Origin: Porticoccaceae bacterium
GTDB taxonomy: Bacteria > Pseudomonadota > Gammaproteobacteria > Pseudomonadales > GM7GCV1
Direction of reading: 5' to 3'
Assembly: GCA_018662305.1 (NCBI GenBank)
Contig: JABJGI010000131.1
Span: forward strand, 1 to 56,930
DNA length: 56,930 nucleotides
Notes under the pieces: model-generated
What the model saw: only the letters and a program-made list of their open reading frames with translations
What the model was told of the DNA's origin: nothing
Databases searched by the model: none
Translations under genes and position numbers: made by a program
Part shown: piece after piece, positions 9,819-13,827 of the stretch
How the letters are laid out: each line of letters begins with the position of its first letter
Position numbering within the stretch: the stretch's first letter is position 1

Positions 9819-12614
9819 ATGTCTGACGCTCCGCTAATTCTCGTTGATGGCTCTTCTTATCTCTATCGAGCCTTCCATGCTTTACCCGATTTAAGAACCG
9901 CAAAAAATCGTCCCACAGGTGCAGTTCGCGGCGTAATTGCCATGCTTAAGAAGGAGCAGAAGCAATTCCCAGACAGCACTATCGTTGTGGTTTTTGATGC
10001 CAAGGGCAAAACCTTTAGAGACGAGCTTTACGGCGAATATAAGTCCCACCGTCCGCCTATGCCCGACGATTTGAGAGAGCAAATAGAACCTCTACATGCC
10101 TGTGTTCAGGCCATGGGCTTGCCCATGATTATTCATCCAGGCGTTGAAGCGGACGATGTGATCGGCACTCTAGCTCTGGAAGCCTCAGGGCGCGGCAAAG
10201 CTGTACTGATTTCAACTGGCGACAAGGATATGGCGCAGTTGGTTAATGACAATATCGGCATTATCAACACCATGTCGGGCTCACAATATGATGCCGCCGG
10301 TGTTGAGGAAAAGTTTGGAGTTCCGCCTAAGCTAATTATTGATTATCTCGCCCTAATCGGGGACAAGAGTGACAATATCCCGGGAGTACCGGGTGTTGGA
10401 GAAAAGAGTGCCACACCCATCCTTCAAGCCTTGGGTGGCTTAGATGATATTTATGCCAATTTGGATGCAATAGCCGATCTCGAATTTCGCGGCGCCAAAA
10501 AGATGGCCGAGAAACTGATAGAGCACAAAGAGGCAGCCTATCTTTCCTACAAGCTCGCGACCATCAAGCTAGATGTTGAGCTAGAGGTTACGCCAGCCGA
10601 TTTGAAGAACGCTGAGCCGGATACTGAGGCACTTAGGAGCCTCTATACAGAGCTAGAGTTTAAATCCTGGATCCGTGAGCTCGAAAATGGCGGCGGAGGG
10701 TTCAGTCTTTCGCAGGGTTCTGAATCGGTATCCAGTTCGAACTCGGAAGCAGAGCATGGCACGGGATCCGAAACAGCTTCTACTGAGTCGCCCAAATCAT
10801 CAGTCGAGGTTTCTTATGAATTGGTACTTGAACAAGCCAGTCTCGATAACTGGATCGAGAAGCTGACAGCAGCCGATGTTTTTGCCTTTGATACGGAAAC
10901 TACCAGCATCAACTATATGCAGGCTGAAGTTGTTGGACTTTCCTTTGCGGTGGAGCCCAATAAAGCAGCTTATGTTCCTTTTGGGCACGACTACCCGGGG
11001 GCTCCTGACCAGCTGGACGCAGAGATAGTCTTTACTGCGCTCCAGCCGATTCTCAGTGATGAACGCAAAGTGCTTGTGGGGCAGCACATAAAATATGATC
11101 TGAGTGTTTTGGCGCGCAGAGGCATCGAGATTCGCTGCAAACTGCAGGACACCATGTTGGAATCCTATGTGCTCGATTCCGTCGCCGGCCGGCACGATAT
11201 GGATTCGCTGGCCTTGCGCAATCTGGATCGAGAGACTATTCACTTCGAAGATATAGCCGGCAAGGGAGCCAAACAAATTACCTTCAACCAGATTGAGTTA
11301 GAACAGGCTGGCCCCTATGCCTCTGAAGATGCGGACATCACGCTTCAGCTGCATCAGACGCTTCATCCTAAGCTTGAAAACACATCGGAGCTGTTGTCGG
11401 TGTATGAGGAAATTGAAGCACCACTTATTCGCATCTTGTCGCGTATAGAGCGAACCGGCGCATTGATTGACTCAAAAGCCATGCTTAACCAGAGCAGTGA
11501 AATCGCAGTGAAGCTGATCGATCTGGAGAAACAGGTTCACGATTTGGCAGGCCAGCCATTTAATCTGGCGTCTCCCAAGCAGTTGCAACATATCCTCTTT
11601 GAAAAAATGGAATTGCCGGTTTTGAAGAAAACCCCTAAGGGTCAACCGAGCACAGCAGAGGACGTCTTACAGGATCTAGCTGCCGAACATGAGTTGCCTG
11701 CTTTGATCGTGGAATACAGAGGTTTGGCCAAGCTTAAATCTACCTACACAGACAAGCTGCCTCAGATGGTGGACGAAAAAACCGGCCGCTTGCACACCTC
11801 TTATCATCAAGCGGTAGCGGCAACGGGTCGTTTGTCTTCAACCGATCCCAATTTACAAAATATCCCTATCCGCACAGAAGAAGGGCGACGTATTCGCAAG
11901 GCCTTTATCGCGCCAGAGGGAACCAAGCTGCTGGCGGCGGACTACTCCCAAATAGAACTTCGCATAATGGCGCATCTCTCCAAAGACGCTGGGTTACAGA
12001 AAGCCTTTGCCAACAATCTGGATGTGCATGCAGCGACGGCTGCCGAGGTCTTTGGTGCAGAAATTTCAGAAGTAACCTCGGACCAGCGTCGCAGCGCAAA
12101 AGCGATCAATTTTGGATTGATGTATGGCATGAGCGCTTTTGGCTTAGCGAAGCAATTGCATATTGCCCGCAAAGAATCACAGCAATATATCGACCTCTAT
12201 TTCGAACGCTACCCTGGTGTTGCCAGCTTTATGGAAGAAATCAGGGAAGATGCTCGAGAGAAGGGCTATGTAGAGACCCTCTTCGGCCGTCGTCTTTATC
12301 TCCCACAAATCAACGCCAGGAACGGCCAGCTGCGAGCTGCAGCAGAGAGAACCGCCATTAATGCTCCCATGCAGGGCACTGCCGCAGACATTATTAAGCG
12401 CGCCATGCTTTCAGTTGATGCCTGGATGCTGGAGAAAAATCCGCCGGTCAAAATGATCATGCAGGTTCATGATGAGTTGGTGTTTGAGGTGGAAGAAGCC
12501 TATGTCGAGCAAGCCAAAGAAGAAATTATCTTGCTGATGCAATCCGCCGCAGAGCTCTCTGTACCCCTGCTTGTGGAGGCGGGTGTGGGAGATAATTGGG
12601 AGGAAGCGCACTAG
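9819..12614 (+). CDS. polA: DNA polymerase I
   Basis: LVDGSSYLYRAFHA 5'-3' exonuclease; FDTET 3'-5' exonuclease; DYSQIELR, KAINFGLMYG and QVHDEL polymerase motifs. Confidence 0.99.
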   Translation: MSDAPLILVDGSSYLYRAFHALPDLRTAKNRPTGAVRGVIAMLKKEQKQFPDSTIVVVFDAKGKTFRDELYGEYKSHRPPMPDDLREQIEPLHACVQAMGLPMIIHPGVEADDVIGTLALEASGRGKAVLISTGDKDMAQLVNDNIGIINTMSGSQYDAAGVEEKFGVPPKLIIDYLALIGDKSDNIPGVPGVGEKSATPILQALGGLDDIYANLDAIADLEFRGAKKMAEKLIEHKEAAYLSYKLATIKLDVELEVTPADLKNAEPDTEALRSLYTELEFKSWIRELENGGGGFSLSQGSESVSSSNSEAEHGTGSETASTESPKSSVEVSYELVLEQASLDNWIEKLTAADVFAFDTETTSINYMQAEVVGLSFAVEPNKAAYVPFGHDYPGAPDQLDAEIVFTALQPILSDERKVLVGQHIKYDLSVLARRGIEIRCKLQDTMLESYVLDSVAGRHDMDSLALRNLDRETIHFEDIAGKGAKQITFNQIELEQAGPYASEDADITLQLHQTLHPKLENTSELLSVYEEIEAPLIRILSRIERTGALIDSKAMLNQSSEIAVKLIDLEKQVHDLAGQPFNLASPKQLQHILFEKMELPVLKKTPKGQPSTAEDVLQDLAAEHELPALIVEYRGLAKLKSTYTDKLPQMVDEKTGRLHTSYHQAVAATGRLSSTDPNLQNIPIRTEEGRRIRKAFIAPEGTKLLAADYSQIELRIMAHLSKDAGLQKAFANNLDVHAATAAEVFGAEISEVTSDQRRSAKAINFGLMYGMSAFGLAKQLHIARKESQQYIDLYFERYPGVASFMEEIREDAREKGYVETLFGRRLYLPQINARNGQLRAAAERTAINAPMQGTAADIIKRAMLSVDAWMLEKNPPVKMIMQVHDELVFEVEEAYVEQAKEEIILLMQSAAELSVPLLVEAGVGDNWEEAH

Positions 12615-12638
12615 GGAAAATTTATTTCAAATATTTTT

Positions 12639-12665
12639 GAACTTATTTGATTTCCTGTTGACCAA
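12639..12665 (+). promoter_or_regulatory. sigmaE/AlgU-type promoter 1
   Basis: GAACTT (12639-44), 16-bp spacer, ACCAA (12661-65). Confidence 0.65.
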
Positions 12666-12670
12666 CTTAG

Positions 12671-12746
12671 TGTAGAAGTTTTCCCTCCTTGTTATTTTCC
12701 TGAGCAAGTCTGCTAACCCCCGGTGTCCGACCGGGGGTTTTTTTTT
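12671..12746 (+). ncRNA. Putative sigmaE-dependent sRNA 1 (ErsA/Spot 42 locus), ~75 nt; 5' end estimated
   Basis: Lies between promoter 1 and a terminator; contains TTTTCCCTCCTTGTT; no ORF; polA-engB position. Confidence 0.6.
12715..12746 (+). terminator. Rho-independent terminator (sRNA 1 and/or polA)
   Basis: AACCCCCGGT-GTCCG-ACCGGGGGTT stem-loop ending in a 9-T run. Confidence 0.92.
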
Positions 12747-12773
12747 GAACTTTCGAAACTTACTGACCTCCAA
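12747..12773 (+). promoter_or_regulatory. sigmaE/AlgU-type promoter 2
   Basis: GAACTT (12747-52), 16-bp spacer, TCCAA (12769-73), abutting the first terminator. Confidence 0.72.
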
Positions 12774-12778
12774 GAAGT

Positions 12779-12878
12779 GGTATTTCATTTTCCCTTTTTT
12801 ATGAATGCACTTACCCCTTGCGGAATTGGTATTTTTGACCGCAATTTATTGGCCCTCCTCTGGAGGGCCTTTTTTTTT
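12779..12878 (+). ncRNA. Putative sigmaE-dependent sRNA 2, ~100 nt; 5' end estimated
   Basis: TTCAT/ATGAA stem with a TTTCCCTTTTTT loop, second stem TTGCGG/CCGCAA, then a terminator. Confidence 0.6.
12851..12878 (+). terminator. Rho-independent terminator (sRNA 2)
   Basis: GGCCCTCC-TCT-GGAGGGCC followed by 9 T. Confidence 0.92.
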
Positions 12879-12896
12879 GAGCCTTGAAGGGGCTCA

Positions 12897-13001
12897 CTCT
12901 TTTGCCTTGTTGTGGTGTTAAATCTCTGCTCAGTCAGTTACGTACCAAATGTACGCTCCTTTCTTGTGCGGAGATTTGCCTTACAAAAAGGCAAAATAGA
13001 G
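12897..13001 (+). other. Long imperfect inverted repeat / rod-like RNA structure of unknown function
   Basis: Nested stems: TTTTGCCTT/AAGGCAAAA, TTGTGG/TTACAA, AAATCTCTGC/GCGGAGATTT, CGTAC/GTACG. Confidence 0.55.
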
Positions 13002-13043
13002 GCGCCCATCAAATCGCAGATCAAATTAGAGGGCTATTTCCCC

Positions 13044-13676
13044 TCAGCTGGTAGGTGGCAGTTCGAGCCAATTCGTTAGCTGTGCCTTTAGTTCTTCGAG
13101 GCCGGTTTTTTTGGTGGCGGAGAATAGTTGGCCGGAAACCTGCTTAGATATGCCGAGTTTTTTAAGTTCTGCCATCATTTTAAGCAGGTTGGCTGAAGCG
13201 GGGCCTCGTTTGAGCTTGTCAGCCTTGGTGAGCAATAGGTGAACAGGGAGATCAGCCTCATGCGCCCACTGGAAGAAGTTAAGATCAAAGGGTTGCAGAG
13301 GCAGCCGCACATCAGCCAAAAGCACCAAACCCTTGAGACTTTGTCTCTCTTCAAGGTATTGGGAAAGGTTTTCCTGCCACTCCTTTTTAACTTTTTCCGA
13401 TACTTTGGCGTAACCGTAGCCAGGCAAATCCACCAGTCTTCGGTCTTCATCCAGCTGGAAAAAATTCAGCAGTTGTGTGCGCCCAGGTGTTTTACTGGTG
13501 CGGGCCAGCTTACCGTTGCGAGTCAGCGCGTTTATCGCGCTGGACTTGCCAGCATTTGAACGACCGACAAAGGCGACTTCTGCGCCCAGATCATCTGGGC
13601 ACTCCTTTAAACTAGGGGCGCTAAGCAAAAAAGCTGCGCGGTCAAAAGAGATCATAGGTTTCTTGGTTGAATTCAC
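13044..13676 (-). CDS. engB: Ribosome biogenesis GTPase EngB/YihA/YsxC
   Basis: GRSNAGKSS, SKTPGRTQ, DLPGYG and TKADK motifs. Confidence 0.97.
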   Translation of the reverse strand: MNSTKKPMISFDRAAFLLSAPSLKECPDDLGAEVAFVGRSNAGKSSAINALTRNGKLARTSKTPGRTQLLNFFQLDEDRRLVDLPGYGYAKVSEKVKKEWQENLSQYLEERQSLKGLVLLADVRLPLQPFDLNFFQWAHEADLPVHLLLTKADKLKRGPASANLLKMMAELKKLGISKQVSGQLFSATKKTGLEELKAQLTNWLELPPTS

Positions 13677-13827
13677 CAGATTGGCTCACTTGCTCGGGTG
13701 ACGATGGAGTATGGCTAGTATATAATCCGCCGGCTCTGAGGGGCAGCCGGAATAATAGAAGTATCCGGTTATCCAGCGTCCATCAGAGAAACCCAGAGTT
13801 TAAAACAGTTTTCGGTAGCACTTTCAG

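Follow-up and report, generated by a model that had tools for sequence, protein, structure and literature searches.

What does a bacterium keep in the gap between polA and engB, where Pseudomonas carries the ErsA RNA and enterobacteria and vibrios carry Spot 42, when that gap holds two candidate RNA genes in a row? The question is raised by a stretch of 56,930 nucleotides (nt) from a Porticoccaceae bacterium (Gammaproteobacteria, Pseudomonadales; assembly GCA_018662305.1, contig JABJGI010000131.1), called the window here, in which positions 12639-12878 hold two promoter-to-terminator units. An earlier note on this DNA had read them as sibling small RNAs (sRNAs). We read them instead as two separate, conserved sRNA genes, each transcribed from its own RpoE (sigmaE/AlgU)-type promoter and each closed by its own U-tailed terminator, and put the probability of this reading at about 0.7. 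The kind of RNA and the locus are known; the sRNA families themselves are new and unnamed. That the pair consists of two stress-promoter sRNAs is a well-supported prediction from the sequence.

The first unit occupies 12639-12746 on the + strand. Its promoter (12639-12665) lies behind a T-rich stretch and has a -35 box GAACTT at 12639-12644, a 16-nt spacer and a -10 box ACCAA at 12661-12665, from which an RNA of about 75 nt (12672-12746) is predicted to start. The candidate seed, TTTTCCCTCCTTG (12679-12691), is predicted to be unpaired, and CCCTCCTT at 12683-12690 is complementary to the Shine-Dalgarno sequence AAGGAGGG. In the predicted fold the remaining architecture is one small hairpin and an intrinsic terminator (12715-12746), the latter comprising a hairpin at 12715-12739, whose 10 pairs include 7 G-C and enclose a loop of 5, and nine T at 12738-12746. 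The minimum free energy (MFE) of the RNA is -26.0 kcal/mol against -14.95 +/- 2.64 for shuffled sequences (z -4.19), and 0 of 200 shuffles were as good. The T run of unit 1 directly adjoins the -35 box of unit 2, which begins at the very next base; the description of two complete units with no gap between them proved correct to the base in both letters and coordinates.

Unit 2 (12747-12878, + strand) repeats the same plan with a different body. Its promoter (12747-12773) has GAACTT at 12747-12752, again a 16-nt spacer, and TCCAA at 12769-12773, and the predicted RNA (12780-12878) is about 99 nt long. This RNA is predicted to fold into a first stem-loop, SL1 (12780-12808), whose loop presents the CU-rich motif UUUCCCUUUUUU, a single-stranded C-rich stretch (12809-12818), a second stem-loop, SL2 (12819-12843), and a terminator of 8 pairs (7 G-C) with a loop of 3 at 12851-12869, followed by nine T at 12870-12878. 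Its MFE of -26.7 kcal/mol likewise lies far below that of shuffles (-15.82 +/- 2.73; z -3.99; 0/200 as good). The nine T that end each of the two intrinsic terminators fit the terminator feature of Hfq-type sRNAs.

Conservation in relatives is the decisive evidence that the units are beyond chance. We compared four genomes of the genus (the window genome, G000, with G001, G002 and G003) and 11 genomes of the family, and both units were present in the polA-engB gap of all four genus genomes. There the mean pairwise identity of unit 1 is 0.83 in the -35 box and 0.90 in the -10 box with 0.29 in the spacer, and the corresponding values for unit 2 are 1.00, 0.73 and 0.24, so that the promoter boxes are kept while the spacers between them stand at random-level identity. 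The body of unit 1 is conserved in G001, G002 and G003 (z 9.7, 3.7 and 16.9), the CCTCCTTG core of its seed is retained in 4/4 genomes, and the terminator stems vary in sequence yet remain paired. A second strain, represented by a 36-kb DNA contig from run X9, has 10 listed substitutions over the 701 nt from 12400 to 13100, only one of which falls within 12639-12878, in the spacer of unit 2. Five others lie in 12913-13009, four of them inside a hairpin at 12897-12998 that is described below.

Within the 2.24-Mb window genome, a script that looked for a promoter-like site and then a GC hairpin with at least 6 T within 45-140 nt returned 112 promoter-like sites, 290 terminator-like sites and only 2 complete units, which are exactly units 1 and 2; the reversed genome gave 0. 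Because the regular expression of this script was modelled on these units, the outcome serves as an illustration only. The exact pattern GAACTT-N16-TC..A matches the genome 14 times, and the only 3 matches outside long open reading frames (ORFs) are unit 2, a tandem repeat on contig C28 and an unclear site on C29. The C28 match (about 13617-13680, minus strand) was rejected as a false sigmaE-like promoter formed by a 12-nt tandem repeat, GAACTTCAYCCC.

Across the family, engB was found in 11/11 genomes, and a strict script placed at least one unit beside it in 9 of them and at least two in 8, with three units in G010 and one in G005. Comparing the gaps of relatives, as the earlier note had proposed, shows the units to be conserved beyond the genus. 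Neither the strict script nor a covariance model detected a unit beside engB in G004. The same model recovered the engB-side unit of G008 behind GGAACTT-N16-TCAAA, which brings that unit to 10 of the 11 family genomes. In all 18 family promoters the spacer is exactly 16 nt long, in a search that permitted 15-17.

The position of unit 1 just behind polA raises the possibility that it consists for the most part of the polA transcript's 3' end, its hairpin serving as the polA terminator and any sRNA being cut from the 3' untranslated region (UTR), with secondary or inactive promoter boxes and unit 2 as the only free-standing gene. Two observations fit this: our terminator scan found no other terminator between the polA stop (12614) and the unit 1 hairpin (12715), and the -10 box of unit 1 reads ACCAA or ACTAA in place of TCnAA. 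The unit 1 terminator probably does end polA transcripts as well. Yet in 4/4 genus genomes both boxes of unit 1 are preserved over a spacer that is not, and in G006, G009 and G010, where the units remain on the 3' side of engB without polA nearby, the polA-side unit keeps its GAACTT-N16 promoter behind a different upstream gene. A 3'-UTR origin and a promoter of its own are, moreover, not mutually exclusive; MicL and DapZ are 3'-UTR sRNAs with their own promoters. We regard a unit 1 that is essentially a polA tail as improbable, and continue with two separately promoted genes. In one genus (loci L022, L023 and L026 of G006, G010 and G008) the product of the upstream gene ends in ...ELKELIEKKL or similar and is not polA; therefore, the sRNA units travel with engB rather than with polA.

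Two arrangements in the family stand apart. The third unit of G010 (L023:2507-2606, minus strand) lies upstream of the usual two behind GAACCA-N16-TCACA, and its body opens like that of the polA-side unit (GCATAGACT) and then diverges. The polA-side unit of G009 (L025:2344-2444, minus strand) contains three head-to-tail copies of a 21-nt repeat, CTGCATTGGCACATTCTCCCC, and one RNA would therefore carry the CU-rich seed three times.

Are the two units of the window copies of each other? Unit bodies, stripped of their terminators, were aligned locally and the scores set against those of dinucleotide shuffles. The two window units reach a score of 19 (z 1.1), and 146 of 1000 shuffles did as well. 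At z >= 4 the two fall into separate clusters. The first unites the engB-side units of the family, namely the second units of G000, G001 and G002, the single unit of G005 and the engB-side units of G006, G007, G009 and G010; the second consists of the four genus unit 1 bodies; and the third holds the polA-side units of G006, G007 and G010. Unit 2 is a family-wide sRNA, here called unit B, that always adjoins engB, and unit 1 is the genus version of a polA-side unit, unit A.

The identity of unit B is also visible in its structure. A covariance model of its 3' module (CM R1; 69 positions, 14 pairs) scores 54.1 bits on window unit 2. In G008 it gives 40 bits and in 8 further genomes of the family 56.6-82, and among 151 sampled genomes of the order it reaches 54 bits or more only at the engB locus of family genomes. 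Matches of the model outside the engB locus, none above 41.9 bits, were discarded; the two that were read proved to be terminators of protein genes. In the alignment fitted to this model the share of paired cells is 93.9%, compared with 85.8% for shuffles and 35-52% for slid controls, and 7 of the 14 pairs have changed on both sides, which none of 500 shuffles matched. Other genera conserve AUUUUCUCCUGAAUUU in the SL2 loop of unit B; in the window genus this loop is not conserved, and the CU-rich motif is found in the 5' hairpin loop instead.

These results bear directly on the idea that the units are true siblings, that is, products of a tandem duplication of one ErsA-like ancestor that have diverged past pairwise detection and keep related CU-rich seeds with overlapping targets. 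The units do share promoter type, spacing, orientation and adjacency, and clear tandem paralogues exist at this locus elsewhere, in G150 (z 22) and in G021 (z 7.9, both units ErsA-like), the latter with three sub-threshold RF01719 matches in a row. In the family, the extra unit of G010 with its unit A-like opening and the single unit of G005, which has both a 5' CU-rich stretch and a unit B core, point the same way, as do two weak bridges at z 3.9: one from G002 unit 1 to G006 unit 1, and one from G001 unit 1 to the ErsA-like G021 unit 1 through a common CTCCTTGTGT..TTTA. Over 561 pairs, however, a z of 3.9 is too low to be secure, and set against the sibling idea are the failure of units 1 and 2 to align better than shuffles, their separate clusters, and their different architectures (75 nt with one small hairpin before the terminator versus 99 nt with two). 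Common descent by duplication is therefore unlikely, although it is the strongest of the rival accounts. The earlier note had pointed to the shared TTTTCCCT, present at 12679-12686 in unit 1 and at 12788-12795 in unit 2; it is what two U/C-rich seeds yield by chance, and the sibling claim itself is not supported. Units 1 and 2 are different genes with a common promoter type and not demonstrable duplicates.

The link to the envelope stress response comes from the promoters. The genome encodes both RpoE (324.8 bits; cut-off 236) and Hfq (101.4 bits; cut-off 61.7). About 45 nt upstream of the rpoE start codon (L057:884-960, on contig C45 of G000) stands GAACTT-N16-TCAGT, and the other three genus genomes have GAACTT-N16-TCTCT, TCTCT and TCACT in the same place with unrelated spacers; therefore, the sRNA promoters share their -35 box and spacing with the presumed autoregulated rpoE promoter. 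GAACTT-N16-TCnAA is what we take to be the RpoE/AlgU consensus. The claim that each unit has a sigmaE/AlgU-type promoter sequence and a terminator of its own is thus borne out, both by conserved boxes and by their resemblance to the rpoE promoter of the genus. Outside the genus, G006 has GAAACTT-N16-TCTTG upstream of rpoE, and in G007 no such promoter was found within 200 nt upstream. The gene divergent from rpoE on C45 is nadB-like by eye.

Most likely, both RNAs would act in the envelope stress response by pairing their CU-rich seeds, with the help of Hfq, to ribosome-binding sites. In this inferred scheme, where RpoE dependence, Hfq binding, the targets and the direction of regulation are all presumed, envelope stress would free RpoE, both RNAs would be made, and each would bind Hfq through its hairpin and U tail. 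Exposed CU-rich stretches, which would be UUUUCCCUCCUUG in unit 1 and the UUUCCCUUUUUU loop together with the single-stranded ACCCCUU in unit 2, could then anneal to the purine-rich ribosome-binding regions of mRNA targets and change their translation.

Several results weigh against our reading. On its own, the motif GAACTT-N15-17-TCNAA shows no enrichment in the genome, with 22 matches and 19 in a backwards control, the invariance of GAAC and of the -10 C/A over the 18 family promoters was partly imposed by the regular expression of the search, and the covariation figures come from an alignment fitted to the model, 2 of whose 12 rows are not unit B. The -10 box of unit 1 starts with A, where unit 2 and rpoE have T. 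Six weaker RpoE-model matches in the genome may include genes for other extracytoplasmic function (ECF) sigma factors, and one of these could use a similar -35 box. The only RNA run with any of the stretch (X20, with 0.09 of the sampled words) covers 12468-12620, the end of polA, in its single 175-nt contig. By longest perfect complementarity to 3556 crude translation-start regions, a search that used neither a gene caller nor an accessibility model, seed matches of at least 9 nt showed no enrichment relative to 20 shuffled seeds, whose means were 13.6, 9.4 and 3.3 for observed counts of 9, 11 and 4. The eight annotated members of ten picked candidates show no common theme. They are a sulfatase-like protein, a sodium/solute symporter, a tetratricopeptide repeat (TPR) protein with a sub-threshold match to the NlpI model, ribosomal protein L9, a weak dioxygenase-like match and three without a family. 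No outer-membrane protein was among the top candidates of this crude search. Duplex folding of the whole RNA bodies against the same regions was abandoned, as it returned long, meaningless duplexes.

The chance frequency of the motif and the location of the units outside the RNA coverage are also what would be expected if there were no sRNA genes here, only spacer DNA with two terminators and promoter-like words arisen by chance. Against this, a second terminator on the same strand would have no purpose if unit 2 were not transcribed; genus and family preserve the bodies and boxes, whereas the spacers have decayed; the stems carry compensatory changes; and the same arrangement is found at the proven ErsA. 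We hold it to be very improbable, the least credible of the alternatives weighed here, and retain the reading of two conserved sRNA genes.

The surroundings of the pair are as the earlier note supposed in naming it the ErsA/Spot 42 locus. The window is contig C128 of a genome assembled in 170 contigs, and the sequencing runs that contain the stretch are nearly all marine or seawater metagenomes. Upstream lies polA, encoding DNA polymerase I (9819-12614, + strand; NF004397, 1193.9 bits), and downstream, in convergent orientation, engB/yihA (13044-13676, minus strand; TIGR03598, 237.5 bits), with both units head to tail on the + strand inside the gap. No sigma70-like promoter was found in 12400-13300. 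The 54- and 53-amino-acid ORFs of the window have no counterpart in the other three genus gaps, and no small ORF is common to all four.

Between unit 2 and the engB stop, at 12897-12998, is a long imperfect hairpin of about 100 nt with an MFE of -48.1 kcal/mol against -27.9 +/- 3.1 for shuffles (z -6.4; minus strand, z -5.5), of which G001 has a diverged version and G003 none. The surrounding 12885-13043 was considered as a mobile repeat and rejected, being single-copy in the genome. In G002 (L004/L020), tandem copies of GTCATCCTGAGGTC with flanking inverted sequences are present in the spacer that separates unit 2 from engB; the other genus genomes do not have them. G007 (L021) has an extra small gene inserted between polA and the sRNA units; by eye its product shows a signal peptide and a CxxCH haem motif and is probably a cytochrome c.

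How widely is the engB-side position used in this way? We scanned 28 engB loci, one per other family of the order, and 20 further loci. Among the 28, the strict script found a unit in 9, another 5 were recognized by eye, and two units were present in G030 and G021; among the 20, a unit was found in 11, with two in G150 and G262. Tandem units thus recur beside engB in three other families, and the view that a tandem at this locus is unique to the window is not supported: the pair is one case of an arrangement that recurs there. The two G150 units are close paralogues (z 22). Those of G021 resemble each other (z 7.9) and ErsA (z 4-8), and the three RF01719 matches on the same locus (L047:1149-1788, minus strand) score 40.2, 36.4 and 35.9 bits, below the gathering threshold of 50, which makes a triple ErsA array possible there. 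A UUCUCCCCC-type seed connects the polA-side units of G006, G007, G009 and G010 with those of family f54 (z 4.4-6.9).

Tentatively, and at somewhat less than even odds, the engB-side spacer may be an order-wide nursery of envelope-stress sRNAs, in which a fixed promoter and terminator scaffold would be combined with turnover of the body, repeated duplication and a CU-rich seed that moves between the 5' stretch, the SL1 loop and the SL2 loop. Two or three units have been seen in at least four families, and in the streamlined 2.2-Mb window genome the two units might form the whole sRNA arm of the RpoE response. The distribution suggests that the locus of ErsA, with a sigmaE-type promoter driving a short RNA next to engB, occurs widely among marine Gammaproteobacteria of this order. 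How new sRNA seeds come about behind a constant promoter and terminator is a question for which the pair makes a natural test case. Few regulators are known from the abundant, uncultured bacteria of seawater that have small genomes, and two conserved stress-promoter sRNAs would offer a direct way into the adjustment of their envelope.

Comparison with known RNAs places the units by kind and not by family. In gathering mode, Rfam scans gave 0 matches on the window and 0 on 38 engB loci of relatives, and in E-value mode only sub-threshold rows. On 12500-13150, RF01719 (Pseudomon-1/ErsA) produced no row up to E = 10, and on 8 family loci none up to E = 1; as a positive control the same model scored 133.7-135.6 bits on 5 Pseudomonas-type loci (gathering threshold 50). 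For Spot 42 (RF00021) there was no row on the locus, and the best match in the genome, on another contig, reached 21.8 bits against a gathering threshold of 80. The Rfam check that the earlier note had suggested for ErsA and Spot 42 therefore matched neither, and because of this units 1 and 2 are treated as unnamed families. Sub-threshold similarity was seen to anti-hemB/ncS04 (RF02837; 33.6 bits on unit 1 and 18.2 on unit 2; gathering 49.5) and to mmgR/suhB (RF00519; 30.6 bits on unit 2 and 24.8 on unit 1; gathering 41), both of which, like our units, consist of a short hairpin with a CU-rich motif followed by a terminator. In relatives mmgR/suhB scores 19.2-20.5 bits. Anti-hemB was rejected as an assignment: in 8 relatives it scores 17.8-23.2 bits on both unit types, amid equally weak rows of unrelated terminator-bearing RNAs.

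Spot 42, the product of spf, has the same neighbourhood of polA and engB/yihA; the difference lies in the promoter, which here is of the sigmaE-like type, with no sigma70-type promoter found. The logic proposed for the units is that of the sigmaE-dependent Hfq sRNAs MicA, RybB and MicL of Escherichia coli and VrrA of Vibrio, in which a short RNA made from an RpoE promoter has its seed at the 5' end or in a loop and ends in a U-tailed terminator. There is no relation in sequence between these RNAs and the window units; MicA scores 18.5 bits against a gathering threshold of 41.

For the head-to-tail arrangement the nearest parallel is the PrrF1/PrrF2 pair of Pseudomonas aeruginosa, in which each sRNA gene also has its own promoter and terminator. 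Those two are Fur-controlled, near-identical paralogues, whereas the window RNAs are not detectably related to each other and their promoters are of the sigmaE type. Five genomes of family f26 carry PrrF above threshold, and genus g102 has two PrrF copies in tandem. In the published literature, with subscription papers (including Ferrara 2015) and supplements outside the search, we found no description of a tandem at this locus, of these RNAs or of ErsA homologues outside Pseudomonas.

ErsA is the closest known relative in kind, and has so far been studied as a Pseudomonas RNA. In published work ErsA is placed in the polA-engB spacer (PMC8575079, PMC8395346, PMC13613067), is sigma22-dependent (PMC8395346, PMC8575079) and Hfq-aided (PMC8395346), acts on algC, oprD and amrZ (PMC8575079, PMC8395346, PMC13613067), and folds into SL1, an unstructured U-rich domain II, SL2 and SL3 (PMC8575079). 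The polA-engB gap of the five f26 genomes holds one unit of about 130 nt, ErsA, behind GAACTT/GAACTA-N17-TCAGA. The window units share with ErsA the position beside engB in the polA-engB gap, the strand arrangement, the kind of promoter, the intrinsic terminator with a long U tail and the U/C-rich single-stranded regulatory stretch. Their sequences do not align with it (pairwise z <= 0.5), and their number and build differ: ErsA is a single gene and the window has two, and the roughly 130-nt ErsA with SL1, U-rich domain II, SL2 and SL3 contrasts with about 75 nt, one small hairpin and a terminator in unit 1, and with 99 nt, SL1, SL2 and a terminator in unit 2, whose CU-rich motif is in the SL1 loop. 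Taken together, these likenesses and differences suggest that the RNA at the ErsA locus has been replaced and multiplied in these bacteria.

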